Assembly: GCA_051294905.1 (NCBI GenBank) | Contig: CM119373.1 | Location: 2,420,001-2,484,000 of the forward strand | Reading direction: 5' to 3' | Origin: Botryllus schlosseri | Taxonomy: Eukaryota | Length of the DNA stretch: 64,000 nt | In this document: in pieces, positions 1,415 through 50,994 of the stretch | Position numbering within the stretch: the first letter of the stretch is position 1 | Layout: each line of letters begins with the position of its first letter | Translations under genes and position numbers: made by a program | Notes under the pieces: model-generated | Database searches by the model: none | What the model was told of the DNA's origin: nothing | What the model saw: only the letters and a program-made list of their open reading frames with translations

Positions 1415-3863
1415 CAGGGGTCGCCAACTCAAAAGGGGTCGCGGGCCACTTTTTAGACTTGCACGAGGTCGCGGGCCGCAATAATGTAGTAGCGAGACAA
1501 ACACGCCATACATCTTAGAAAGCATGTTTATGAAACATTACTGAGTCTACTACATCATCGTGCACTTCCTAACGTGGCCATAGGCATATAGTTACGACAA
1601 AAGAAACATTGTTTATTAACGAAATTTCAATACAACGAAAAAAACATCATGATCATCACTTCAAATATGATTAAATTATACGCTGCGCTTGAGACCTGAC
1701 AACGCTTTCCAGCGACTAAAGAATCGATGTCAGGGCTGATGGAGCGTTGGTTCGCAAGTCTCAAAATTGCTTTGAGATGCTCATCTGTTAGTCGCGAGCG
1801 TAAGGCTGATTTATTGATCTTCATGGTCGAGAAAAATTGCTCGCAGACATACGTACTGCCAAACATTGCGAGGATCTTCCGGAAGTGCGAAGAAAGCTTC
1901 GGAAACTAATGCTGCGGCAAGTACTTGAAGAATTCAGGCAAGGCTACTTCCGAATACTTTTCCTTCATTGCCGAGTCACATTGGAGATCCAACAATTCCA
2001 TTTGATATTCCTCGGTGACTGATCCGACATCAATAGTCATTGGTGTAGCAAAAAGAGCAAGTTCATTTTCCAGAGTCACAAAATCCTGAAATCTTGAATT
2101 GAATTCCGTATTCAACAACATGAGTTTATCAGAATATTGCTTCATATTCCCGAGCTCGACTGTTGTCAACGACCGGAGAGTTGCAAAATGAGCAAGGTTT
2201 CCGACTTCAAGTTGCTTTGTCCATAGCATCAGTTTGCGCCTAAATGATTTGATTGAATCGTACATCGCAGTTACAACTTTCATTCGACCTTGTAATGTGG
2301 TGTTTAAATCGTTCAGATGTGCCGTAATATCGCATAAAAACGCAAGATCAGAAATGAATTGTGCGTCTCCCAACTCTGGCACGTCTGCATCTTTCAGCGC
2401 CATGAATAAACCAATCTCATCTCTCAATGCGAAAAAACGTCTCAGCACATTACCACGACTGAGCCATCGCACTTCCGTGTGGTATAATATTTCGCCATAC
2501 TCACTCTCGGTGGCTTCTAAGAAAGCTTTGAACTGACGATGATTCAGGCCCCTCGAGCGAATGAAATTCACGGTTTTTACTACTACGTTCATAACACCAC
2601 TCATTCCCAAATATTTGCTACACAATGCCTCTTGGTGTATAATGCAATGTATGGCATGGATAGGAACGCCTAATGTCGTCATCTTGTTTCGTAGAAGCCC
2701 AACTAGGCCTACTTTTTCTGACCTCATGGCTGGAGCTCCATCGGTGGCTACTGAGACCAGCTTACACCAATCCAAATCGGCATGGTCGACACATTTGTTT
2801 AGCTCGCGGAATATGTCTCGCCCTGTCGTCGTAGTTTTCATTGGCAGGACCTCCAGAAGTTCCTCCGTGACGTTAAAATCTCTGTCGACTCCTCGGACAA
2901 ATACAGCCAAGACAGCGCTGTCGGTGATGTCGGTACTCTCATCCAGTGCCAATGAAAATGATTGGAAATTCTTTCCAATTGAGGATAGTTGTTGATACGA
3001 GTCTGCAGCCAATTCCGTGACACGACGAGCAACTGTACTGGCTGAAAGACTGACGTCCTCGAAGAGCTTGATCTTTTCTGGACATAATATTTCACTAGCC
3101 TTCAGTAGACATCGCTTCACATAATTTCCTTCGACAAATGGTCTCGAGTCCTGCGCAATCATTTCAGATAGGGCAAAACTGGCTTTAACTGACAGTTCAT
3201 TTGCTTTTTTCAGATTTGAGAAGTGGCTCTGCTGCTTATTCAAAGAATTCTTTAGTTGCGTCAACTTCTGTTCACGGTGTTTTCCAGTATAGTCTTGAAA
3301 CTTATCCTTGTGTAAAGACTCATAGTGGCGACGAACATTGTATTCCTTTCGGACAGCAATGGTAGAATAGCAGACGAGACATTGTATTTGGCCGTTGCAC
3401 TCTGAAACGAAATAGTTCAGTTCCCATATTTCCTGAAATGTCCTGTTCTCGTCCGATATCTTTCTTTTGGGCATCGTAAGTATGTAGGGAAGAAAAATCG
3501 CGAGAAACACGATTCCAGACTCCAACTCACCTAGTACGCGTATGAGGAAGTATCGAACTGTTTTGTAGGCCTATGCGTCTCGATCATTGTCAATGTCTGG
3601 TCCATTATTACGTCACAAAGTGTACCACTTCCTATCAGCTGATCATCTCTCGAGGGAGTGGAATTACCATCGCCAATGTGTTTTCAACGAGTGAGTGAAA
3701 ATAATGTAGGTCACATGAGAATAGAATATTTTGATCAACAACATTTTGAAACTGGAATTAATTTCAGCATTTCAATATTATTTACTCGGTGTTCATTCAA
3801 AATTTCAAATGGGTTCGCGGGCCGCAAAATATGACCTCGCGGGCCGCGTGTTGGTGACCCCTG
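1415..3863 (-). mobile_element. Full-length hAT transposon, Buster/Charlie/SPIN-like (2449 bp)
   Basis: TIRs CAGGGGTCGCCAAC / GTTGGTGACCCCTG (13/14 match); perfect 8-bp TSD GTGTAGGT (1407-1414 and 3864-3871); subterminal gcgggccgc repeats; internal transposase. Confidence 0.95.
1627..3474 (-). pseudogene. hAT transposase (SPIN/GTF2IRD2-like) with one in-frame TAG at 1906-1908
   Basis: ATG at 3474 (MPKRK). BED-type finger CLVC...RRHYESLH; catalytic-region motifs SLALDESTD, VATDGAPAM, HCIIHQEAL, EVRWLSRG. After the TAG the same frame continues FPKLSSHFRKILAMFGSTYVCEQFFSTMKINKS. Confidence 0.93.
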
Positions 3864-32848: not shown

Positions 32849-35800
32849 CTAAAATGAACCAGACATCTTCATCAATTACGATCCACTTTATATAGTTTTA
32901 CTATAATTAGGGCGAAGCATATTGGCTCGAATATGCTCCACTCCAAATCGAGTATTAATTGTAATGATCTAGCGGTAGAAGGTGTGACAATTTTCTCGAT
33001 CACTAAATATATACTATCGTATTCACTCAGATGTATATAAACAACGGAAATTATATATTCGATAGTTGCTTCATACCAAAAGATCCTTGCAGCCTCGATT
33101 AGTCATATCACAAAGAGCATGTGGCGAGAAGCATAGGCCTAGGTGCGTAAATGGCATCTAGTTTATGTGAAATCTTGATCAAGCCGTCAGCATTGGCAGC
33201 AAAGTAGGGATGGTGTGAACGTGAGGACCAAGTTCACATTCTGTGTGTGAACCTTCTAGATATGGAGGTTCGCGTTAGCAAACAAACCTTGGTATGTTCT
33301 GCACTGTGGACCTTTTTCATTTATTACAATTTGTCAGGTCATTATAACATCTTTTGTTAAACTTCATTCCATTTAAACCATTTGTGCTGGGAGTCAGAAA
33401 AGAAACATGGATGAATGAATGTAGGATTGTAGGGTTAGAATTGGCAATATGACGTCACGTGTCATGATTACGGTTGCATTTAAAACAGAAATGTTCAAAA
33501 CAAGGAATATGTTCAGAACACTGCTTAGAGCATGTTTTAAACAAACAGTTTTAAAACACCGTTTGTTTTAAATCGAACCCTAGTCGACAGAGGTTCACGT
33601 TTGCGTTCAGACAGGATGTTTCAAAAAGGTTGGGGTTCATGCAAACCAGAACCTTTCATAGGTCCACACCATCAGCGCACAGCAACAAGTACAATGATCA
33701 ACGTACGGTCGAAATAAATACCAAATCTTCTTTAATATGATGTGTACACTGCGCATAGTACATGGTAGTATTTTCTTTGTTGACGCATAAAGTGTATATA
33801 ATTCCACACTCTGTATATCCATACTGGAATTACGACGTAATGAATGATAGTCTGATACAGATGACTCCAAACCAAATGCTGTGTTCGTAATCGAATCGCC
33901 GAGGTATACTCGATTTTTACCTACTCTAATTAGAATATAACAATATACCGGTCTTAATTCTATATCGCTATAGTTTCCGTCTGCTGCTGGAGTTTTGGCT
34001 TTTATTTTTTTAGGCTATTATCTCCCGAATCGTCAAGTTACTGTAGCAAGTTCTTAGGATTGTTATTCAAGTATTTGTGATCTCCGGCAGGAGAGCACAT
34101 GAATCGCATGGAATCTTTGACCCGTACACCGATCAAGCAGGTGCCTTATAGCGGAAATTAGAGGTTAACACACTCTGTCCTTATCAGTCTAAATATTATT
34201 CACTGGTCCCATCTTAAGGGGAAGATAAAAAAATTCGTAGTCGTTTTTGAGAGAATTTTGAGAAAATTGAATGGTCTTGACCTATAGTGAGAATAACTTG
34301 ATCACTATCACTTCCCAGCTTCACAGTATCTATGCCGGCAAAATGACTTTATAAATTTGAATCGACATGCCCACTCTCAGGTAATTTTATGATTCAATTT
34401 ACAGGATTTCATGAATTGATCATTCGTGGCCACGACGAGAAGGACCGTTCTCTCAGTAGGGGTGTATTGTTGAATTTAATTGATAACACAGTAGTTTCGA
34501 GCAAGAATCATACTGAGACAGTATCAATGGGTTAGGTACTCTCGAAGGTAGGCTACATCTCACGGCAAAATAGTTGAAAATGATTGATTTGGAGGATTCA
34601 TGTGGCTAACACGAAGTCATAATTTCATACCAGAATTCGTCACTGTAGCGGGATTTTGACAACAAATTGCCGCCTACCCGTTAATATGGCGAGCCATCAC
34701 TGATATTATGAAACAAAAAGATATAATATATCATTGTAAGGTACTTGTAACAATGGAGTATTTTGGCACCGGATCCTAACACTATTCTTGGTAATCGGGG
34801 TTATTGTCAGACCATTCCTAACGATAATACAAATAGTTATAGCATATGCCTACAATCAATGATATTTCTGATGGTTATCCCGGCAAAATAACAACCAGAC
34901 ATACATGGTTGTCCCTTAACACGAGAACTCAGTGGATAAATTTATCAGTAAAATTGGAACGTGTTAAGTTAATCTGCTGAAAAATAAGTGTGCAGAGCTC
35001 TGTGAAACTGCACACCGTTCAGTCAAAATTCAGTAGCACCATAGTGGAATGGAACCAACGAAACAGGAAAGTTCATGCTAGGCCACATAAATTACCGCAA
35101 TTCATCGTATAAATACTGCATTGATATTCAATAAGCAGTTGAAGTCTACATAACTCCTACAAAATCATCATAATAGTGGTAGTGCATTCGCTTTTAATAT
35201 CTCCCACCTGGATCAATTCTGTATGGAAAGCAGTCGGGACTTCGCAACTCCCTTTCTCCGTCTTTAAGTTCAACCCGAATAGTGAATTCGATATTTGACA
35301 TAGGCTCGTCGCCTCTTAAATGACAACGTCGGAATGATGAGGTTGCATACTTAACGATTTTGCGAATATCAGGCGTGAGCAAGCCACTTTCGACAAACCG
35401 AAAACCCTGTTTATGGTTATCGCACGTCATACACATTCGGATTTTCTGGTTCCTTCTGCACGGTTGTGGACTGAGTTTCCTCATCCTCACATCATCTCCC
35501 AAGTCTTGTCTCATGTCGTTCAGCAACTGCGTTTTGGCAAGATGAGTGTCAAGAACCATCGCTACCACAAACTCTTTGTCCTTGAAAAAAATTACTGGCA
35601 ATATCATATAGGATTGGTTGAAAATATTGCGCAGCGTGGCGACCCAAGGACTAAAATGGCGGGTTTTGAGCTCGACAAATCTGGAATTTTCCGCGGGGAG
35701 AGCTGCGATGTTTTCCCATTTCTTGAAGCGTTCATTGTAATGCATCAAATCCACGACTTGATTGTCATTTTCATAAGGACACCAAGTGTGTAACTTTACA

Positions 35801-36403
35801 GTTGCTGAGTTACGCAGCCTTTTGGCGTCCACGTATAGAGTCGGAGTAATTGCCTCTTTCCCTTCTGGCCATTTTTCTTTGTCTATTTCCGCAGCTATGG
35901 TGATGGTTTGAGCTTCAGAGAAACAACCGGGGGGGAAAGAGACAAAGCAGCCCCCCACTTCGATTTCACAACCGTCCGTTCCTACGTTAACTGTTTTGAT
36001 TTGAGTTGGTACTTTTCTAACGTTTTCTTTCACGTCTTTAGCTTGTAGAGTTGATATAAGTGTCTTCGCCCTTACCGCGCCTAAAATTGCAAACTCCACA
36101 GTGATATTATCAGTGACTCACTGGAATCAGTAATATTAAACGATGTTTTATTGACAATTCCCCTTTAAACAAAATCAGATGTTTAAAAAATCACTTTTGA
36201 TAGGAGTTAGCAATGACGCTTGAAGTAAAATAAAATCCAACTGTTGCAAAAATTGTGATTCGGAATGGATATCCAAAGAGTTCGACGAATCAATACGAAG
36301 TTGAAAACTGATCAACATATAATAGCAATGAAGTCACGTTTACTTTCTAAGAAACTTTGAAGTTCCTATGTTCTTCTTTGGAAACCGACTGCACAAATTT
36401 CAA

Positions 36404-36434
<31 letters not shown>

Positions 36435-39400
36435 TACACACACACACACACTCATACAATCACACACACACACACATAGAACACACACACACGCACTAGT
36501 GCGAAGTATGAACCGGAGCCGGATTGGATATATTTTATATATATTTTTCAATTTTGGCCGGAGCCGGATAAGTACTTTTTTGATACTGCCGGAGCATGAT
36601 AAATAATTTCTGATACTGTCAGAATCTTTATGGATAAGCGTGACTTTCGTGACTAAATAACTAACAACCGAGCCGCAAGCCGCGAGCTGCGAGTAGCGTA
36701 TTTTAGACCTCTGCTGTAGACGTATTCTTAATAAGGGTATGCTAGCCTTCACTGAATAATGGGATGAATTGTGCATGCAAATATTCTTGCGAGTCTGGTG
36801 GTTGCGCGAGTTGTACGAGAACACGGGTTTGAATAATAAAGCTCGTTACCAACTTAGTGAGGCGAGATAATGGGGAAAAGCGACTGGGCTAGCATTGCGC
36901 TTAGCGGCCTTTTTGTTTTCGCCATCGCCTTAAGTTTGTCAAGTAGGGCCTACATACCTAGTATCGAACTAGGTATAGACCAATTGTAAATCGAAACTAT
37001 CTTGCCGTCAAATATTGTTAGGTCGTAAGTTGTGAAAGCAGAATCATCCTACTTGAGTACTCCTATAGATTTGAATAATTCTAACGTATGTACATATCCG
37101 CTACTTATATATACACGTCGTATCATGTCTTATTTGTTATTAGGCATTGTTTGTAACGCAGATCACTCTCAGCGTGTGAGCTCACCTGCGAGTTCAAGAT
37201 ACTTGTCAAGCAGTTTCCACCTTTTGACCAAACCTACATCATTTGGCTCCGTGATCACGTCATCAATAACATGCTGTGGCAGGTCTAACCCTTCCGGAGA
37301 TCGCGCGAAGTTTAGCCATCCCTTGTCGTCACACAATCTTGGCGATAAGATCAGGTTATCAAGTTCTTCGTGAAGCTCCTGGCGTTCTCTTTTTCTGGTG
37401 AAATACCGCGCAACCTTGTTACGCACATATTTCGGTGATACATTTTTACCTGCAACAACAAAAAAATGATGACCGTATGTGGACGTGATTTCCAAGGTAG
37501 TCGAACGAATTTTCTGCCTAAAAGTTCGAATGCCATCTTATTTTCGGATCACGGTGATTAAGTTACATCTGAAGATGACTTGCAAACCAGATACGTCACA
37601 TCCAGATAATCATTTATATTTATTTCTACCTCTGAGATGAATCCATTCCCGGAACGATGCGAGACTTTGTTCTTGATGTTCATATTTGGCAACATAGCTT
37701 TTAGGCAAATTAAGCCCTTCTCGCGACGTCAAGAAATCTACCCATTCTTCAAAACCTTTGAACTGTGAATATATTCTCTCGAAGCAGTCTTCATGTCTTT
37801 GCTTCTGATATCGATCGACCATCTGACGGACTTCGTCTACTGACCCATTATATCCTGGGAAAAATAAAAAAATACCTACGGCTTGTGCGACCAACAATAC
37901 AACAATATACCAAACAGGATGAACCAAACAAAACATTTTTATAGCATTTCGAAGGGCCGATTCCGATCACATTTTTGATACTCGAGCCCGAATTCAAGTC
38001 ATTGTGTCCACTTGTTCAGTTTTGAGTTCAAATCCGACCCACCTCAATTTTTCACAACTTCGTTAGAGTGTTATCGAATGCATCGCATTCGTAAGACAGT
38101 AATACAGGTCATGACTATTGTACATATACCCGAACTGATAGACAAAATACTAAAAATGTTGATAACTTAAATTAAAATATTTTAAACTTATTTAGTAGTG
38201 ATGTTGTAAACCTATGACGTCACGTGGCCTCATATTCCTATTTCCGACCACATATCAGTGAAGTGATATATTAATGGACTCGATACCTAGAGACGACACA
38301 GGCCACACTTTTTCAACGTCACCAAATGTATGAACTGGACCAATAATATAATATAATAATCCCATAAAATTTGTTGCTGTATGCTTTCTGGTCAATCTCA
38401 AAGCAGAGAGTCACTTAATATTCAAAAACGGAAAGCTGAATATTTGAGCAAACTTTTGTAACAAAGCAAGTGAAATTTTTGAGACTGGCATGGAGCATGT
38501 TGGTTTCGTGTTGATTTCTTCCTAGGCTACCTGTGCAATAACCATCATACATAGAGTGCCCCGAAGTTTAAATGCAAAGAATTCCAACCAAAGATGTTAA
38601 TAATGACGTGAAGAATTGTAATATATCCAAAATTTTCATAGCGCAGAACCTACCAAAGTTCGTTTGTGAACGTGAACCTCTAAATTTCGGAGGTTCACAC
38701 GCAGAACCTCACGTTCACACCATCCCTAGTATTCAGTGTAAGTAGTACTTTTGAAGTAATTTGAAATGTTGCCGAGATATCTGACGTCTCATCATTTCCC
38801 AGACCCGTTTTACCATTATACGCCGAATACGAATGCGTCAACAAATGTATTACCGTGCAGTTGTTTCCATTTGTTAAATATAAGCGACTGCTGAGACGGC
38901 GTTTCTGTCAGATCTTCGCCGGTTGTGCTATCAAGAAATTCGACCGGGATTCTCATTCCAATTGAAGACTTGAAAAATTCACTCCGTTCTTTCAAGTCAA
39001 TTAGCCTCGCAAATATTTCATTGAACGCCTCGTCAGATGCTTTTTGCTTGTGACGTTTCAGGAGCTCTTCTCTCTTCGAATATCGTACCACCAATTTGTG
39101 AAGATTGTTCGCGGTGGCGGAGTTTTCTTAACGTGTATAGTTACAATGCTGATCAACACATTCATAAATAACCCATAACACTGGTAAACACAATTTTTGT
39201 TGACTTTGATCAGACAATTAATTTCGATTAACTTTAGGGCGCTGAATTCAGAAATGACTTCCGTTTTTCTCTATCACGTAATGTTGTTGGGGTAGGCACC
39301 CACCCCATTGTCTCATAATGCACATAAAAGTACTATACCTGTAATATTTTGTGTTTATTGTATAAAACGTTTCAAAAACCACAAGCATTCGAAAGTAAAT

Positions 39401-42400
39401 CAATAGACTCGAAATAAACATTTGCACTGCCTTATTTGGTTGATTTAAACTGATATTGCTTCTGAAGGACAAATAAAGTGTGAGTTTCAGGGCCATATTT
39501 ACGCTAATAACCCATAATTCTGCGGGCTGTCTTGTTTGATACTCGAGCAATAGTCAGCTAACATATGTAAGCTCCAATCTACTCTGGTATCTTACCTCCA
39601 TCATCTTCAGATTTTGGGGGATAATTTTTCCTTGCCCATCGCTGTCTATGCCAAGGTTTTCCGGGAAATTATTTATATATTTTAGCTTTTTTGAATGTCT
39701 GCTGTCCGACACAAACATGTAGTAGTGGCACATGTGTATCAGGGTTATATGTGCATTCTTCTTGTCTGACCACTAAGAAAACACAATATTTCAAAGCTGA
39801 CACACATGATCCAATCCGAATCGTGGTTGCAATGAGTGTAACAATTCAATATTTCTGTATCATTTACGAAGACTAACTGAGTGTACAATTGCTACTGCAC
39901 CTAAGACGTTGCCATTCTGGAGAATGTCAAACTTTAGAATCCTTTTCGGGCTGCCAATAGATATTTTCCATTCGCTTGAGTTGTAAATCGGGATTCATGT
40001 CCCCTCCAGCAACCCTTGGTCACAGTATCATGCCAATGTCAGTGTTACAGCAATACAAAAATCTACCGAAAGTAACCATATACGATGAAAACGCCATTTC
40101 TTGTTATCGAAAGTAAGATATATTCGCTCTCTTGTCACGTAATCTTTTCTCAATTCGCAAGGATGCTAAAAGTTCCGGATATTTCTCTTCCAAGTCCCAA
40201 AGCCTATGTCAGATCATTTAGTTTGTGTTGAGGACTGCTCTGCGTCTGAACCATCTTCAATTTCAAAATCTTCATTATTAGGCCTGCCATCCCTGAGATC
40301 TTAATCTTGATCCAAATTATCGAACTTATTGAAGTTTCAAGTTGCTCTGGATATGCTGAATGGAGCTATAGCTGATGGTAAACGTAATGGTATTTTTTTA
40401 TTACCATATCCTGCAGTTTGCATCATATATATGTCTGAAATATCCTCGTACGATTGCATCCTCTAACCGAAAATGAGTGAAAGCATCGGCCTAGATCAGT
40501 GGTTCCCAACGTGGGCGATATCATCAACCAAGGAGCGATTTGGCGGTCTAACGGGGTGAAAATAACGAAGGGGCGATAGGGGGGCGATGGCGCGTTAAAA
40601 CGGCTATCTTGGAGTCAAGTCGGAGAAATGGTCTCTTTTTTAAAGCCTACTCGCCGGTGATTACAATTTGAATGCACATTTTTCAGTTCCTAATTTTTTG
40701 AGGGCAATGGTCGGTGTGGAACTGGAAAAGGGGCGATGAGTCGAAATAGGTTGGAAACCACTGGCCTATATCGATACCAGTACCATTTTTTCACAATAAT
40801 TTAATTGACCCCTTGACTATATAACTTATTATATCATAAAAGTGTGGATTTCTATATGGTGGGGAAAAGTAATATGACTAAATTTGTGAAAATTTTGATA
40901 TTTCCGGCATATGTCGTAGAATAAAAAATTGACGTGATGGAACAAATCCATCGGCATTTTTGGAATCAGCATACCAAATCAGCCTAGATCAAGTGCAAAA
41001 TAAAAGTCATCAAATTTTTCGTTCAAAATTGTTGTCCAGTGTAATAGACGATGGTTTAATATAGCTAGCGAACCTTGATTACTACGAGATGTTAGAAATA
41101 TCAGGTCGGAATATTTGGCGTAGACGGCAGGTCTGGCATATTCAGTTCAAATTACTGTAAAGTGAAATGGTTTCTTATACATTGATTCTGTTATGTATGC
41201 CCGTAAAATTTATACACTAAATGTTGTCTAACTGACTGCATTGTCTCAGAGTGAACTAGGCAATAGCTCCGTGTTGAAATGCAAGTCATGACCTATGAAT
41301 TCCGCAGTGCATCGGTAACTATACAATGCATTAGGCTTTGCAGGGATTTCATTCATTTTGTACTCGGTGAAAAACAGATAGGTTCCATAACTTACCGTTC
41401 ACAGACTTCCAATATTCGAACATTGCAGATTCCTGTTCCCGTACCGATGGAAATTTGAACAACTTCTTCTGTTCTGATATATGTATACCAAATCCATCCA
41501 ACGAACTCGCAAATCTACGGTATTCGGCCGAGTCGGAAAATCGCAACAATACTTCATTTTCGAACACGTATTGGATGAATTATTCCAGCCATATGATGTT
41601 ATTTTTAAGGATGGTGTGAACCCCTTAAAGGTTCAAGTTCGTGTCAATGCGAAACTTTCTAGTTCGTGTCAATGCGAAACTTTCTGAAAGGTTTTGTGTG
41701 AACGCGAAGGTGAACCTCATGACGTCATGTGACGTCATATTACTAATTCCAACCCGTATATTTCATTGAAGTGATAGTCAATATTGATGTACACGATGCC
41801 TAGCGACGACTACATAATATCACAACGCAGCAGTACATATTGACGTTTTAAACGTCGCCAATGTATTAACTGGGGCAATCAAATGATATGTTAATCCCAT
41901 AAAATCAATATATTCCGTCGCTTTGCCAACAATTTCGACGAGGACTTGCAAGGGAATATCAGCTTACCCCTTAACGGTCTAGGCCAGACCGGACAATGTT
42001 TTCGGCGTCTGCCTCTCTACTTGCTGATCATATTACTCCATTAACAAGTTACACAGCAGTAACCAGCAACCCAATCGCATGGATTTGGTTTTTATGGTAC
42101 AATGAACATATGGTATCAAGATTGGCTACCTACGCCTGCTATTTTTTTTATCAGACAACGATATCAATTTGATTGAATGGTTGAATAAGTCTCATTCGCT
42201 GACTGCACCTACATGTAGAGTATTTCTCTTTTGATGTTGTGTGAATGACAGTAATTGGGGGTCAAGCTCACAGCAGAGAGTCACTAAATATTCACAAACG
42301 GAAAGCTGGATATTTCACGCAAGATGCATGCTCGTTTAGTGTTGAGTTTTTATGCTGCCAGCACCGTGCATAGAGTGGCCAGCAGTTGAAATGCAATAAC

Positions 42401-45400
42401 TTTCAAGTGAAGATATCTTAATGAAGTGAAAATTGTAAAATATGAAAAAGGTTCACAGTGCAGAACGTACCAAGGTTCGTTTGTGAAAGTGAGAGCCTAA
42501 ATTTTTGAGGTTCACACATAGAACGCAAACGTGAGCCTCACGGTCACACCATCCCTAGTTATTTTCAATATTTGGTATGTGAAGTCCATTAGCAGACGGG
42601 CGATATCAAACAAATAAACAATTACGCAACAGCAGAACAAAACATCATAAAATAATCAAGAAAATGCTGTTTAACTTGAAATCCAATTTGAAATACGAAA
42701 TAACGTATTGTTACGCAATACTTAAATCATGGAAAGTTATGTTGGTTCGAGCATAGTGTCCTATATGGTGTCGACACAGGCAAATCTCACGCCTCAGTGA
42801 AATTGTATCACGTCACCATTTCCATTTGACTACAAGCAATTTGACGGTCATTTTTGACCGGCTTGCCGACCATTAAATTTGGTGAAACGGGTATCAATCG
42901 AAAGCTGACTCTGCACTGATTACGAAAATATACATTTTATTCCGCTCGTGGCCCTGGAACTACCACAATCAGATTGGCATTGGAACGCAACAATGCTGAA
43001 CAATGCTCTCTGTTTTTTTCTTCTCTTGAGCTACTCTCTCGTTTCGCCAGATAGCATTGTTGCGTACCAAATGGAAATTGTGACATGATACAATTTCATT
43101 GAGGCGTGATATTTGTCTGTGTCGACACCATATAGGATACTATGAATATCGTACACGCATCACCAGTTCTAACTGACGGCATTTGAATTATAGTTACTCA
43201 CCTAACACGCTTTTTGCCTTGAATGTCACTCGATGAGAAATTATGTCGACATTGTTTGATGTCTGTCCATCGTTTGAACTCACAACATACATAACATTAA
43301 TTGGATAGTCTGCCGTTTGCCGTGATCTTAGTCGATATATCCTGGACACGAAGAACGAACCGGTGCGAAGAAACATTTTGGTGAGCGTAAATCTCGACAA
43401 CACATTATTTTTTCCATCAAATGATACTTGATCATCCGGGGTTAATATTCTCATGTTGACCGTAACATCATTAGTAATTTTCATATCAATAGGCTCGAAG
43501 CGACACAGACGGCTGTAACCATTATGAGTCATCGTGGCTTCGACATCCATCTCGAAGTAGGGATGATATTGATGAAAAGTGACAACGATCTTATCGTTCT
43601 TTGCCCATATGAACCCGGATATCCGGATGTTCGTTGATTGACGTACAGATTTACAGAACGCTCTAATGGTGCCGGACGCTTTACATTCAAACTTCAACAA
43701 TTTCTTCATTGCAGCTTTCTTGACTAGTGACCATGCGTCAAATCCATCTTCACATTGAAATATCTCGGCTATTGAATTCTCATCGTACTTTTGGTATGTG
43801 ACCAAATTAATGGTGATGCTTTTCTTGGGATCGGCGTCGAGATACACACTTACCGCCGGTGTGATAGGTATGTATTCAGCTGAATGTTCTGGGGCTTGAT
43901 TGTTCACACGAAGGAAAACCTGCATAGGATATGACAGAGATTGGTTGAATACAAGTGTTGACTTCGTCAATGTTATGGTAATCCTGCAGTAGTGGAATTC
44001 ACAGGAGACACACATCTGATTCATTATTGTAATATCGTTATCTTTATTACATGAGGCACCGACTAATTAGTTTCAATGTGATTTCATACGGGTACGCGAT
44101 TATATTGGGTATAAACATTAGATATTTTACTGTAATGATTGTAATGATTCGAAAAATGCTTTAACTGTAAAATAGGTAACTCCTTTGAAACCTCCATATA
44201 AATTACATTACCACTATTCGCTTGATATTACGATAATATAAATTTTATTTCAACGTTATCAGGGTATTCGACTGACACGGGGATATCAAGTAACACATGC
44301 GCAGGACTCAAAAGTCGATAAACTGTGCCGAAAAAAATAACTCCAACGTCCTTAATATTCAAAATTTCATTCAGGTTACGTCAGATTTGATGATTATTCA
44401 TCTTTTTTTCGATTCTCCACTAGTTGCTGTCCTTTTGCTGACGTTTAATCCTGACAGGTATATTCGGGTTTATTTGAATATGAAAAGGCAACAACAGATT
44501 ATGAACTATAACACTGAAGCATCGTAAAAAACGTATATCTAAAAGTATGCCATGTGACACAGTATGTTCTGTTTGCATATACTGGTGAAATGAGGCTGCG
44601 TTCATTAAGTGCTGAAGAGTTGAGTCTCCTTCACAGGCCTATTTCTCGCAGTCAATCATAAACTGCTAATTCATTATACAACAACACGTGATAAGGTATA
44701 TTGATCGCATACTGTGTCTGAATGTGACCTAAACAGAGGCACTCCATTGAACATAGGTAACCCTAGATCTTTACAGAGGTCTACGTATTGTGTATGTCCT
44801 ACTAAGCAATGATCGATTATATGCATCAGAAGCCGAAAGTCATATTACTCACGTCCGCTACCAATCACCATTCTCGGCATGCCAAGTAATAATATATTCA
44901 CCTGGCATTCGTTTGGCAGCGAGTTGTCGTAAGGAAATTGAAATCTACAGCTTCGGAAAGTAATCGTATCGCCCGTGTTCCTGATGGTCGACTCTGCAGT
45001 AGTTAAGGAAAGAAGTTACCAGATTATATGGGTTGGACAAGCACTATGCACTTTGTACTACCAATACCTGTTACGTCGACCCACGTACTTTGCGACGCCA
45101 AGATTTCACCATCATTAATTTGTACTTTCAATTTCTGCCGACGAAAACAATTGGAACTTTTTAGTAACAAAACTAAAATCAACAGAATAAACGGAGGTAG
45201 AAGCGTAATTTTGATTTCCGTGTTTGAAACTCATAATGAGAATTTTTCTATCATTTCTGTTAATCGAATACGTTGGATATTTGGAAATTGTTGCAATAAC
45301 CGTAGGTGATTTAGGATAACAGTTATGTTAGCTTATATGCAATTAGATTTATTTTCTCCATAATATTAAACAGTTTATGCGACCTCTATTTTGTTCATTT

Positions 45401-48400
45401 GTAACCCTAACCATTTAATATAAACATACTTACCGGATTTTTTATATTGTTCAAAGCTCGTTGTATCGTTTGCAATTCGTTTTCGCCAAATTCCCAGCCT
45501 GTGCAATCACAGAACTCCGATACAGTTTGCAAGAAGTGAGTTAAAGATTGAATATCCTCATCTGTTGGCACTCTGCGATGTTGGCGGAACGTTGTACAGT
45601 TGACCTGTAATGAACCCAAGGTGGCATATACGCCTTGCAAGAATTTCGTGCAGAACGTCGACCATTTGAAATATTCGCAATCATAAATACCTCTAGTATA
45701 GTCTATAGCGGTGGTTCTTGACCGCCGGTCCATGGCAAGTCACCAGCGGGCCCGACAAATATATTAGCACTTTGGACCTCAATTCGAAAATGCCAGAAGT
45801 TGGACGATGTTCCACTAAGTAGAGAAATATGATTTCAAATTTTAATTTGATTGAAAGTTTCTGACGTATTCTTGCATGATGTCGTAGTATAGGTCATAGT
45901 TTATTTTTGGCATACGTATCAATTTTGTAAGTGTTGTGCGAGGCTGATAAGAAGTAGCCTACAGCTCGGGTCGGACAAGTTATATGTTCAACCTGGCGAG
46001 ACCTTTAAACGAACAATACAATTAGGCGACTCTTGTCAGAACAATAAAGATTACAGCTGTGCAACGACGTTCTGACGAAAATGGGTAATACTCATGGTTA
46101 CCACAAAAAAGCAATAACCTATTAAAGTAGTACATATACAACAGGAAATATCATGATCATAACGTCATTTTATTTTGTACTATGAGCTGAGCACGAAACC
46201 CGACAACGCTTTCCAGACATGTTACTAGCTGAAAGACCATCTCAACCTACAGATCGATGCTGTGGGGACTTTCTATAGGCCGTTTTCTAAGCGCCTCGGT
46301 CTTAGCAGTGTCTGGGCCATTGCACGTCAAGGAAATATGCTTATTGACATAAGGTGACTCTCCATCGATGGAATGCTTTTTCCATCGCGGAAGCCGCTTC
46401 AGCTAGTGTGGAATAGTGTTGTGGGCGAATAGTTTATTTTTAAACAACAACAATAATATTAATAATTTGAAACTGAAATCAATTTTAGCATTTCAAAATA
46501 CTTTGTTTCGCGTTCTTCCAAAAACACAAACCAGATCGCCGGTCGCGATTGCGGTGAACCCTAGCACAAAACGTGCCAGTCTTGGTGTACAGAAGTTGAC
46601 CATTCTCATGATTTGAATCGACCTGATTTTAGCTGTATTTATTTCCGTTTCACAATTCCATTCAATTTCAAAGTTATTGAGAATTCTGTAATTTTAATTA
46701 TAATATAACTTGGAAAAACTTTTTATCAGCCCGCGAAGTGTAACAGGTTGAGTGGTGTACAGAATTTCACCTTGACAATATCCTCTACATTCCATAGTTG
46801 CTCATGCAGTGCTTCCAGGAAACGACTCGATATAAGGCAACCGTCAAATTTCAATTGCGCCACCCTACCACGGGCACGTATGCAAGACGATAAAGCGCTG
46901 GCATCTGCTCGATTTAGTTTGATGGAGTTGCTGGGAATCATGGACAAGTTTTCGAATTCATCAATGACACCATCCCCAAGAAGGCATTTGGACTCCGCAA
47001 ACAAATGCAGGGCGCGAAGCTGATCGTCGATGGTTTTCGCTGATTCTAGCCAGCGACGAATCAATATTTCACTAAATCCAATGATATAACGTTTTTTGTA
47101 GTAGTGATCAGTTAACAGTTCGGCTCTTTTCTCGCAATCTAAATATAACTTCAAATTATTACACAAAGACAAGGAATGAAAATGGGTTTCTTCTGACCGG
47201 GATCAATCAGGTCAAAAGCCGTTTCTGTCATTTCGTTATCTGCAAAAAGTCCACTCAGTATTTGCCAGGCGCCATGGAAATTCTTATTGTCCACTGCAGC
47301 TTCATACTCATCTTTTAATCTTGATCTATCGCAATCGTAAAGATACAGCGCCGCGAACCCGTCTAAAATAATCGGATGACAAAATGACATCAAAATTTGA
47401 CCCCCAATCGCAATAGTTTTCGTCAAGAATAGAGAATCAAGTTCGAATCGTTTTGTGTCCGAACTGGTTATTCCGTGTTTCGCGAAGTCCTCGGCGGTGA
47501 ATGTCGAACGACCATCTTTTCTTGCGTCATAGCATGCGGTCATGAATTTACGAAAGTCTTGGATTAAATTTTTCCGCTTGATCGCGCTGAGAAGCTGCAG
47601 AAATATGCCCGCTTTTCCTATAAGAATCTTTTCGGAATCATATTTGATAGCATGAAGAACGTAAAGTAATATCATTGGATTTTCGCATAGCGCCGTTGAA
47701 TATGGTGTCATTTTGGAAAAGTTGGTTTCGTATAAATTAAGTTCATCACTTGGAAATTGACTAACAATCGCCTGTACCGCGTCTACGGTTAATCCTTGTA
47801 CATGGTATGATCTATCGATATCAATTCCAATCGCATTAACGGAGTTCATATTGTCCTCGTGACAGGAGGACACGACGAAGCACCCAGGATATTTCTGACC
47901 CGATAATATTTCAATTAAAGTCTCGCGGGACTGATTTTCTTCTCGAGTGATGGGTCCGAGTAAAATACGATCTATGTCATCGAATATGAAGCATACTTTC
48001 GAAGGATATTTTGCAATCCAATTTGCTGCTCTTCTTGCAAACTCGTCGGGATGAGACTTGTCGTTTTGATATACGGTAGTTTCAGGACATTCAACTAAGA
48101 ACTGAGTATCCGAGTCTCCTATATCGTCGAAGATTATATTAGATACAGTTTGGTGCCCGTTGCTGGGGAATCGACGGAAACCACAGCTCACTGATATGAT
48201 GACGTCAACGTCACGGTTCAACGATCGTGGTGGTTCAGTCGCCAGATCGTGCTTCAGCTCTGCTAATACCGTACTGCGACCAGAACCGTCTTGTCCTGTA
48301 ACGCAAACGTGACAACTTTTTTTGCTGGGGAGTTGTTGTTTGGAGAGAACTTGCAACAGTTTGGAGCCTTCAATTATCGATTCGTGGGATTGTAAATCTC

Positions 48401-48569
48401 GGATGATGATGTTATTGTGTAGTTGGGGACGGAGAAATCCCTTTTCCGTAATGCTGATCATTCCGTAATGCAGATCATTTGATATCTCTGCAAATCGATG
48501 CTCCCGGACATAGATTGCAATGTCATGCTCAGTGACACGATGCGGAGACACAAAATCTTTCAATCGACA
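32727..48569 (-). CDS. Multi-exon NLR-like gene: NACHT - degenerate LRR-like - ZU5/UPA-like - 4x death-domain-like - ZU5(HFS)/UPA-like - short tail (5' end incomplete)
   Basis: Exons 48569-47198, 47138-46771, 45604-45434, 45134-45068, 44993-44902, 43919-43202, 41551-41396, 39126-38854, 37854-37630, 37449-37186, 36080-35208 and 32848-32727. All introns are GT-AG with matching phases; total 4701 nt is one open frame of 1566 aa. The 41551 acceptor and the last exon are the weakest parts. Confidence 0.72.
35208..36080 (-). CDS. Exon: end of death-domain repeat 4, ZU5 with HFS motif, UPA-like domain
   Basis: VGTDGCEIEVGGCFVSFPPGCFSEAQTITI...AITPTLYV...SATVKLHTW...W...FVELKTRHFSPWV fits the ZU5 pattern; acceptor ttttag|GC in phase 1. 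Confidence 0.85.
36404..36492. repeat. Imperfect (CA)n microsatellite
   Basis: Direct reading. Confidence 0.95.
37186..41551 (-). CDS. Four phase-1/1 exons encoding tandem death-domain-like repeats
   Basis: Exons of 156, 273, 225 and 264 nt end in WKSVN, WKQLH, WIHLR and YLELA, each followed by a phase-1 G|gt donor. The next exons begin NSATANNLHKLV, YNGSVDEVRQMV, KNVSPKYVRNKV and AVRAKTLISTL, resembling the death-domain W-x4-G-x-x-A-T-x3-L-x3-L motif. A shared F-x-x-S-x-x-G-L/F/M-x-I/L core recurs in all four. Confidence 0.68.
38200..38728. mobile_element. Partial TAGGGATGGTGTGAAC-family hAT MITE (intronic)
   Basis: Ends gttcacaccatcccta; aligns to 41720-42557; another left end at 33205. 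Confidence 0.75.
40497..40763. mobile_element. hAT MITE, family of 9314-9714 in opposite orientation
   Basis: TIR cagtggttcccaac/gttggaaaccactg; TSD gcctagat/gcctatat (7/8). Confidence 0.85.
41606..42557. mobile_element. TAGGGATGGTGTGAAC-family hAT MITE just upstream of death-domain exon 1
   Basis: Termini taaggatggtgtga/tcacaccatcccta; perfect TSD GTTATTTT. Confidence 0.88.
42752..43144. mobile_element. MITE with ~75-bp terminal inverted repeats
   Basis: catagtgtcctatatggtgtcgacacag...ctgtgtcgacaccatataggatactatg; no clear TSD. Confidence 0.75.
43202..45134 (-). CDS. Three exons encoding the first ZU5 plus UPA-like module
   Basis: KLKVQINDGEILASQSTWVDVT|ESTIRNTGDTITFRSCRFQFPYDNSLPNECQ|VFLRVNNQAPEHSAEYIPITPAVSVYL...SITINLVTY...W; collinear with the ZU5 exon at 35208-36080. 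Confidence 0.72.
45434..47138 (-). CDS. Exons for the post-NACHT helical region and short degenerate LRR-like segments (47138-46771, 45604-45434)
   Basis: QLRALHLFAES; IKLNRADASALSSCI...QLKFDGCLISSRFLEAL; DEDIQSLTHFL...DCTGWEFGENELQTIQRAL. Splice phases are consistent. Confidence 0.65.
47198..48569 (-). CDS. NACHT NTPase-domain exon
   Basis: Walker A-like VCVTGQDGSGRST; Walker B-like VCFIFDDIDRI; YHVQGLT; LCENPMIL; winged-helix-like MSFCHPIILDGFAALYL. A 59-nt phase-1 intron (47197-47139) links it to the next exon. Confidence 0.9.
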
Positions 48570-48963
48570 CTACATGCTAGTGAATGTATAGGGGTATCTG
48601 ATCGCATGTGCAAGATTAAATAATTGCATGTGATTGAGATAGGGGTTTCGTCACGATACTTCAATGCTAATTTGGGTTGGGCAAAATCGAGCATTCAACT
48701 GAATCGAGCACCACTCAATGTGACGTCATCCACCGTAAGAGTGATTTTTAAAGTACAAATATGTATTTCGTGTTTTATCTTACCAATAATTATTGCATAG
48801 ACTGTCAGTATGTGACAATGCTCAAAATGTTCGTGTCCCCGCGAACATGCGCATTGCGCATCATCGTGCGTCATTTGCCTGATATGAGTGATATCATACC
48901 ATCAACCGTAGTTTTCAAAGCTTCGATATCGATGATGGGAACGTAATGTGAACAGACACATAC

Positions 48964-50994
48964 TTCCAGCCGTTGAAACAATTCTTGTCGAAATGATTGA
49001 GATTGCATCGTGTCAATGTTCGAAAACATCAGCTCCTGTGACCAGGCGCCAATCATTACAGTCAATACTTGACGCCAATACTCGACTCGCTGCGCCCAGC
49101 CGCAATGATAATCAGTAGCGATTTCGCGAATTCTACTTTCACGACTGTTCCTCATAAACTTTCTGTGGCGCTGGAACAATGATATTTACCTTGCACAACC
49201 AATACGTCCGAATCCAGGACTACTTTGAATTCGGATTGTATTGGATAAAGGAATATAATGAAATTTAATAGGTAGTTCACGTTATAGATCAACAATAATG
49301 CTTACTCGCTCAGCTACAGATTGGGGTTTTAAAATAAGATCTACCGGGAGAATGTATAGTATTAGCAAAAGTAGGAGAGCCGTACGATAAGCCAATCAAA
49401 TACAAACTCACAATTTGAGATGCAAATCGGAAAGATGTAACACAAATGTATGACGATTGAATGCAAAACCGATAATATAAAACCATATTGTGTCGTTACG
49501 CAAATTCTTTCGAAATCTTTCAATAATAAATTTGCGACAACAAAACATCTGATAACGGACAACGTGCTTACGCGATGCTGGAATATATCATAAAAGTTAT
49601 TGACTGAAGATCATAAAAGTCAAACTCATGCGGAATGCATCGCGCAAGTGTGTTATTTCACAATGATTCACCGACTTCTTTTTGACTCCAAAGTCGGATT
49701 TACGTCATTCCAACGATTTCGCACTAGCTATCGCTTGCGATACTTGGCTAACATGCACCTGGGTCATATTGCCTTATGAGAGCTGATACCATTCCCTGGA
49801 AGCATGTTAGCTCCAATCGTCTTATCTACTTTAAGCTGTCCATTAATACTGTATACGTAATCACCATGAGATATTGCTTCAAACGATGATACAATTACTT
49901 GTAATACATCTGATTATGATCACAAACATCTGATATTGTCCACTTACATACGGAACAATGCAGTATGGAATGCGTGGATCTATCGTTTATCAATCCTCGT
50001 ACCAAGGACATTTGTCGATTGAGTCCTCCGGGCACCACGGACATTTTAAATGCCAGTATCACCTTCGTGACCGTAAAGGTAATTGAGCACCTATTCTGAA
50101 TAGCTGATTTGAGTTTTGACATAAACAGACCGACTTGTTAGGTAATCCTATGCCAGACATATATTCGTAGCATCTTACAGTGATGTATTACAGTGACGGC
50201 TCGTCACAAGATCGAAAGAAGGAGGCAGGGGAATAAACTCCAGTATTTTTTTTCAAAATGGAGCATTATGACACGAAAATGTTACTTCATTGTGGTCGCA
50301 CGACAACAGGGCACATCAACCAGCATGCCGCCGCACAGTGCTGGCCGTGAAAGGCTCGTAGGAGTGCCGCGACGTAAATCTAAATACCATAGATATTTTT
50401 TGGGTATAGTCATTTTGTTAGAATTAACGCGAGAAATAACCATCTAAGTAAGAAGTCGATATCACGCGGAAAGGTGATCAGTTTGGAATTCGACTCTCAA
50501 ACCAAAAATTATCGTACGTAGTCCACTCATTTATTTCGCAGACTTTTGGAGAATACAGTGACGGCGAAAAATATTAACATCTAAAATCTATCTAAGTTAG
50601 TAATCTTGTTCATTTGTACAGCAGCATCATTTTCGCGGAGTCATCACCACACAGATCTATCACAACATCTTATACATTGCCTACTATGAACACTTGAACA
50701 GTTATACATAATCATAGTGTTGAAAGAACAAGTAACATTTAATATTTACACGAAAGAAAAACCTTATATTGAGTATTTATGCACATCAGTGTAACTTCTG
50801 CTGTTTCCTTTCAGATACCAGTTCAGAAATAGAGGCCTTTGTCTTGGAAAATGTCATCGTATTGTTCAGTCGAAGCGCTACACGTGATAGCAATTGTTTA
50901 ATTGTCAACGAGCTTTTCAATACTGGAGATAAAAGTGACATTTCAAAAAGACGGGGTACCGATTTCGAATCCAAAACTAACTCCTTATACGCCA
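48964..50994 (-). CDS. Candidate upstream exons of the NACHT gene (49170-48964, 50095-49952, 50994-50819)
   Basis: Open frames bounded by AG/GT with compatible phases; no recognisable domain; start codon not identified. Confidence 0.45.

Follow-up and report, generated by a model that had tools for sequence, protein, structure and literature searches.

A putative NLR-type gene of Botryllus schlosseri predicted to carry four death-domain repeats between two ZU5-UPA modules

Introduction

How could a single immune receptor come to carry four death domains in a row, and what would such an array do? The question is raised by a stretch of 64,000 nucleotides (nt) from Botryllus schlosseri (assembly GCA_051294905.1, contig CM119373.1, positions 2,420,001 to 2,484,000), here called the window, on whose minus strand four short exons had been proposed to encode tandem death-like domains of a NOD-like receptor (NLR). 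That first-pass annotation, made from the letters alone, held that the array grew by exon duplication and that skipping of exons could vary it. Comparison of sequences and structure modelling support the view that the four exons encode death-domain homologues, and the gene in which they lie is likely an NLR-type immune sensor of this species. We lean slightly towards one NLR-like chain in the order NACHT, leucine-rich repeats (LRR), ZU5/UPA, four death domains, ZU5/UPA, in which the array would stem from old duplication of phase 1-1 exons and would act as a tethered, multivalent tail for docking.

Four symmetric exons

The exons of the array, which encode repeats R1 to R4, are as follows.

41396..41551, minus strand: exon A (156 nt, phase 1-1), with a weak acceptor; encodes repeat 1 from the end of its helix 1 through helix 4
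38854..39126, minus strand: exon B (273 nt, phase 1-1); supplies helix 5(-6) of repeat 1, then helices 1-4 for repeat 2
37630..37854, minus strand: exon C (225 nt, phase 1-1); supplies helix 5 of repeat 2, then helices 1-4 for repeat 3
37186..37449, minus strand: exon D (264 nt, phase 1-1); supplies helix 5 of repeat 3, then helices 1-4 for repeat 4

These lengths and phases, as first annotated, are borne out by the AG/GT ends of all four exons and by their open frame, every length being a multiple of three. A strong pyrimidine tract precedes the acceptors of C and D, and none is found at those of A and B.

Two further claims stood only in part. The intron was said to fall at the same position in every repeat, which holds for R1, R2 and R3, where the split codon is the fifth after a conserved Trp (W+5), but in R4 it is either the fifth after a Tyr (Y+5) or the eleventh after a Trp (W+11), depending on whether that Trp, six residues before the Tyr, is taken as the homologous residue. 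The two anchors tie overall: MAFFT aligns the Trp, which is preferred on the N-terminal side (score 2.2, vs -7.8 for Tyr), whereas the C-terminal side prefers the Tyr (-4.0, vs -11.5 for Trp), and the offset may be best explained by exon D having six extra codons at its 3′ end. Each exon was also described as the last helix of one repeat plus the body of the next; exons B to D do join the end of one repeat to the beginning of another, but the intron follows helix 4 and precedes helix 5, and exon A includes no helix of an earlier repeat, its 5′ intron lying at the start of repeat 1 directly after the UPA domain. Helix 1 of repeat 1 is truncated, and the spliced form of exon A scores 33.8 bits, compared to 36.6 bits for an in-frame read-through upstream of the acceptor, which would represent a longer ancestral exon A.

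Homology and fold of the repeats

A death-domain profile built from Styela clava, five of whose seven source proteins pass Pfam Death, finds all four repeats (R1 E 2.9e-8, R2 3.2e-5, R3 5.1e-7, R4 3.6e-4) and gives no match on a reversed control, and the core columns Phe, Ser, Gly and Trp are conserved in 10 of 10 rows when the repeats are aligned with the Styela domains. The repeats also resemble one another, being roughly 25-35% identical without any exon-to-exon match in DNA: against 1,000 shuffles the six pairs gave z values of 6.4, 3.3, 1.2, 11.2, 6.4 and 7.1, with identities, in the same order, of 19/64, 16/64, 6/20, 20/70, 16/47 and 9/34, five pairs falling between 3.3 and 11.2 and only R1-R4 at 1.2. 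In a structure model of the exon B product, helices 1-4 take up the arrangement of the death fold, including the Trp of helix 4, and the closest known structures are the death domains of TNFR1, DR3, Fas and FADD, at modest Z values of 5-7. Residues 29-90 of this model match residues 96-152 of FADD, which we take to be helices 1-4 of its death domain; the conserved Trp is thus placed in helix 4 and the intron before helix 5. Profile and model together uphold the earlier assignment of the repeats to the death domains.

Several searches returned nothing. Pfam Death (PF00531) matches none of the four single exons at E<=10, a single exon covering any repeat only in part. Foldseek with the exon B model gave no match at E<=0.001, and PDB sequence searches gave none for the last exon (Z) and nothing significant for alignments A1, A2 and A3, the best being Fas for A2 at E 0.09, behind a phycobiliprotein at 0.027. 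The ESM Atlas offered no usable family for exon B or for exon U1 of the first ZU5, none of 54 pattern matches in a JGI metagenome scan was confirmed, and word-index searches of longer proteins with the NACHT and last exons found none, though relatives exist. An extra or pseudo-exon near 40260-40080, or a further repeat in the window, was also considered and rejected, as a six-frame profile scan matched exons A-D only.

How complete each fold is bears on a reading that we consider unlikely, namely that the repeats are degenerate five-helix units which separate the two ZU5-UPA modules as a rigid spacer, or act there as a decoy, and form no signalling platform. It would agree with the lack of a Pfam Death match to single exons, with the truncated helix 1 of R1 and with an AlphaFold2 model in which a single 36-residue helix extends from helix 5 of R1 to include helix 1 of R2. 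Spacing points the same way for one repeat, since the distance from the Trp to the conserved Phe of the next repeat is 55, 45 and 52 residues, compared to 53-57 in five Styela pairs, and the 45 residues of R2 leave little room for helix 6; the best Pfam stretches in the Styela domains themselves stop at profile position 60-65 of 86. Against a spacer or decoy stand the core columns held in every row shared with Styela, and frames that stayed open through a divergence that wiped out all likeness in DNA. Very unlikely, in our estimate, is a chain of interlocked death folds in which neighbours share a long helix (5/6 into 1), a pre-built filament seed in cis with a length tuned among paralogues and, within cells, by skipping; were it true, diversification would concern the effector end, in its valency and its choice of partners, and not the sensor end.

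The gene model

The claim that the repeats lie within a NACHT gene is supported by a Pfam NACHT match of 44.2 bits (cut-off 26.7). On the minus strand, six upstream exons, exons A-D and the last exon Z were joined in silico into a model of 11 exons and 1,530 codons, one open frame without stop or frameshift, with the domain order NACHT, short LRR end, ZU5/UPA, four repeats, ZU5/UPA. The upstream exons are as follows.

47198..48569, minus strand: exon N1; NACHT NTPase with the helical domains that come after it (Pfam NACHT E 2.4e-11; splice ends)
46771..47138, minus strand: exon N2, phase 1-0; end of the helical domain and beginning of a short degenerate LRR region
45434..45604, minus strand: exon L, 171 nt, phase 0-0; C-terminal end of the LRR (tblastn to Styela P0014)
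45068..45134, minus strand: exon M, 67 nt, phase 0-1; linker
44902..44993, minus strand: exon U0 (92 nt, phase 1-0); first part of the first ZU5 (profile A3 match)
43202..43919, minus strand: exon U1, 718 nt, phase 0-1; remainder of the first ZU5 and UPA, without a Phe-Ser cleavage pair

The NACHT Walker A motif has Arg instead of the usual Lys, and the acidic pair of Walker B is kept. An intron of 59 nt (47139-47197) between N1 and N2 accounts for an apparent frameshift where the NACHT exon ends. A Pfam LRR match is absent from the LRR region, of which about 140 residues align with the LRR end of Styela proteins (E 6e-10), residues 537-674 of the spliced model matching that of Styela P0014 across the N2/L/M joins at E 6e-10. 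Profile A3 crosses the U0/U1 join at E 1.4e-22, while Pfam ZU5 gives no match to exon U1 alone; the last module has the ZU5-UPA fold by structure model and fold search, and the first is assigned by profile only. Upstream of the NACHT exon, a strong-site exon rich in Asn, Val and Gly was sought and none found. A candidate first exon at 48964-49155 (minus strand) has a Met-initiated frame of 64 codons and a phase-0 donor that fits the NACHT exon acceptor, and gave no family match and no death-fold match.

Three RNA runs of 12.9, 10.0 and 9.2 million records were searched against the window. None of the modelled introns is among the 15 joints listed of 582, and depth on unique exons is near zero in all three runs, being 0 in each over 37320-37983 and 43296-43959 and, in one run, below 1 on the last exon and the NACHT exon. 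The exon joins therefore rest on the open frame, the splice signals and colinearity with Styela proteins, because no read displayed any splice joint. Between 97 and 99% of the placed RNA reads continue into sequence unlike the window, and the signal comes from intron repeats. High-copy non-coding repeats occupy introns at 38206-38730, 41710-43144, 40491-40771 and 33202-33378; an intronic pair at 38390-38730 and 42260-42559 is 67% alike, and an inverted pair lies at 42752-43144. A further run, X1, behaves as DNA and contains exons C, D and Z in another haplotype, with a contig that spans exon C with 0 gaps. The NACHT stretch 47646-48402 is represented by two X1 contigs with 27 and 74 differences in 757 bases, which suggests an allele and a paralogue, or a very divergent allele at about 90%.

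A rival reading is that the locus is decaying and silent, or that the model joins two neighbouring genes, one a NACHT-LRR-ZU5/UPA gene ending at U1 and the other a separate adaptor of four death domains and ZU5/UPA. Near-zero RNA depth, the weak acceptor of exon A within repeat-rich DNA, and the Styela NACHT-LRR-ZU5/UPA proteins P0013, P0019 and P0029, which stop after one module, are points in favor of such a reading. We nevertheless judge it improbable: U1 ends in a consensus phase-1 donor that fits the phase of exon A, no in-frame Met lies near the start of exon A, the 1,530 codons run without stop or frameshift, and Styela P0042 has two ZU5-UPA modules in one chain.

Elsewhere in the window, a frame of 554 codons at 1906-3570 (minus strand) matches the Spin-doc zinc finger (E 5e-8) and, weakly, DUF4371; presumably it is a hAT-type transposase.

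Origin of the array and the question of exon skipping

Tandem duplication of a symmetric exon is the simplest origin of the array and the likely one, and in this the first-pass proposal is supported. Two death domains, each with an intron after helix 4, would have been the starting point, and unequal crossing-over between these introns would have copied the exon spanning them with the frame kept, the duplicated unit being a phase 1-1 exon that begins with helix 5 of one domain and ends after helix 4 of the following one. The duplications must be old, since the repeats retain so little identity and no likeness at the DNA level. A recent segmental duplication was rejected, self-blastn of 35000-49300 having given three matches, all of them intronic repeats.

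Exon symmetry alone is ordinary. None of the five internal exons besides A-D is of phase 1-1, and an exon copied in tandem preserves the frame only if it is symmetric, so that the four related exons count as one observation. Moreover, Supplementary Table 25 of PMC4284660 counts 151 death-domain exons of phase 1-1 against 14 of phase 0-0 in the lancelet B. belcheri, and 7 against 0 in human. Required by duplication and in line with a chordate bias, the phase symmetry carries no weight for skipping.

That skipping any exon preserves the frame proved correct, as all 16 combinations of exons A-D remain open. Whether these combinations are used, giving receptors that have zero to four repeats, with hybrid death domains, and so differ in how many adaptors they bind or in which ones, seems doubtful to us. 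The weak acceptors of A and B would favor it, and NLRP3 provides a precedent, since NLR LRR exons with borders at a fixed repeat position are skipped according to parts of PMC6642158, which makes the idea plausible and not new in kind. On the other hand, tandem duplication demands the symmetry, chordate death exons normally show it (the 151 vs 14 of B. belcheri), and no joint among exons A-D occurs in the 15 listed of 582. The repeats are also poorly alike (16/64 to 16/47 identical), so hybrids would pair helix 5 with an ill-matched core and swapped helices may not pack. Conservation of the frame under skipping would be a by-product of the duplication route, with a full-length mRNA of four repeats taken as the main product.

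A predicted mechanism

The two ZU5-UPA modules that bracket the array, absent from the first-pass description of it, set the likely mechanism of the tethered tail that we favor. On oligomerization of NACHT, the tail of four death domains would recruit death-domain effectors. The first ZU5-UPA may fold back on repeat 1 and mask the tail, at least partly, until activation, as suggested by UNC5, ankyrin and PIDD; masking of a death domain by ZU5-UPA is described for UNC5 and ANK2 in the relevant part of PMC9162469. The first ZU5 has Ser-Gly at the aligned cleavage place, and because it lacks Phe-Ser the array would stay attached to NACHT, unlike in NLRP1 or PIDD-CC. The last ZU5, which comes after the repeats, keeps the PIDD-type HFS motif and is predicted to self-cleave between its Phe and Ser, which would free the terminal UPA only, a cap or switch and not an effector. 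Phe-Ser is retained in 9 of the 21 relatives of alignment A3, and in the B. schlosseri model no Phe-Ser site is placed so that cleavage would release a fragment of UPA and death fold.

Likely partners would be styelid proteins that start with the same death-domain subfamily (DD-FN3-ZU5/UPA-kinase-RNase and DD-DD-NACHT, where DD is a death domain). Styela clava P0048 (XP_077972327.1) and P0061 combine such a death domain with a fibronectin-like segment, ZU5-UPA, a protein kinase and an RNase L/IRE1-type ribonuclease (Pfam Ribonuc_2-5A E 4e-15 and 4e-12), and are a candidate effector for these NLRs. Downstream of the one death domain, at residues ~90-110, both proteins retain a copy of the helix with which the second domain of DD-DD proteins begins; this copy could be helix 6 or a remnant of recombination. 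In Styela clava P0035 and P0063, a ZU5-UPA of the same family is fused to a caspase domain (P0035, Pfam Peptidase_C14 E 1e-39).

Comparison with known systems

Fusions of ZU5-UPA have already been described (parts of PMC8195603), as have ZU5 and death domains with NACHT in cnidarians (parts of PMC8260672) and death-fold N-termini in sponge NLRs (parts of PMC3879445). Among Styela clava proteins, both annotated only as uncharacterised, P0042 (XP_077973547.1) is colinear with our model as NACHT-LRR-ZU5/UPA-ZU5/UPA but has no repeat between the modules, and P0057 (XP_077968838.1), with four relatives, is an NLR with a tandem pair of death domains from the subfamily of the repeats; unlike in the model, the pair is N-terminal in P0057, which gives no ZU5 match. 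More than two good repeat-profile matches occurred in none of the 62 proteins scanned, and an NLR with a C-terminal array of four death domains between two ZU5-UPA modules was not found in these or in searches of open-licence full text. The same searches listed nothing on the intron position after helix 4; for both points, domain tables in the supplements of other NLR surveys may be relevant. Lancelet death domains are encoded by phase 1-1 exons as here, in a table that counts exons without the intron position inside the domain (PMC4284660), and NLR LRR exons have repeat-internal borders at a fixed position as here, the skipping shown for NLRP3 concerning LRRs (in the portion of PMC6642158 cited above).

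A double, "partially overlapping" death domain with ZU5, as here, is reported for MACC1 and SH3BP4 (PMC11585957), which differ in being SH3 adaptors with two repeats and no NACHT or LRR. PIDD1, UNC5B and ankyrin-B form a ZU5-(ZU5)-UPA-DD supramodule (PMC9162469, in part; PDB 3g5b, 4d8o), whereas here the module stands behind NACHT, there are four repeats, and the HFS-bearing module comes after the death domains and not before them. NLRP1 and CARD8 are given as NACHT-LRR-FIIND-CARD, with FIIND being ZU5-UPA, in the relevant passage of PMC3210808; in their place the B. schlosseri model has four death domains instead of one CARD, a preceding ZU5 without the cleavage pair, a second ZU5-UPA after the repeats, a very short LRR and no N-terminal death fold found. 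Every module is known, and the C-terminal placement of four units between two ZU5-UPA modules appears to be the new part. If made as modelled, the chain would be an invertebrate-chordate counterpart of NLRP1/PIDD wiring with valency built into one polypeptide, and a clean system in which to ask whether death domains in cis tandem lower the nucleation barrier of death-fold complexes.

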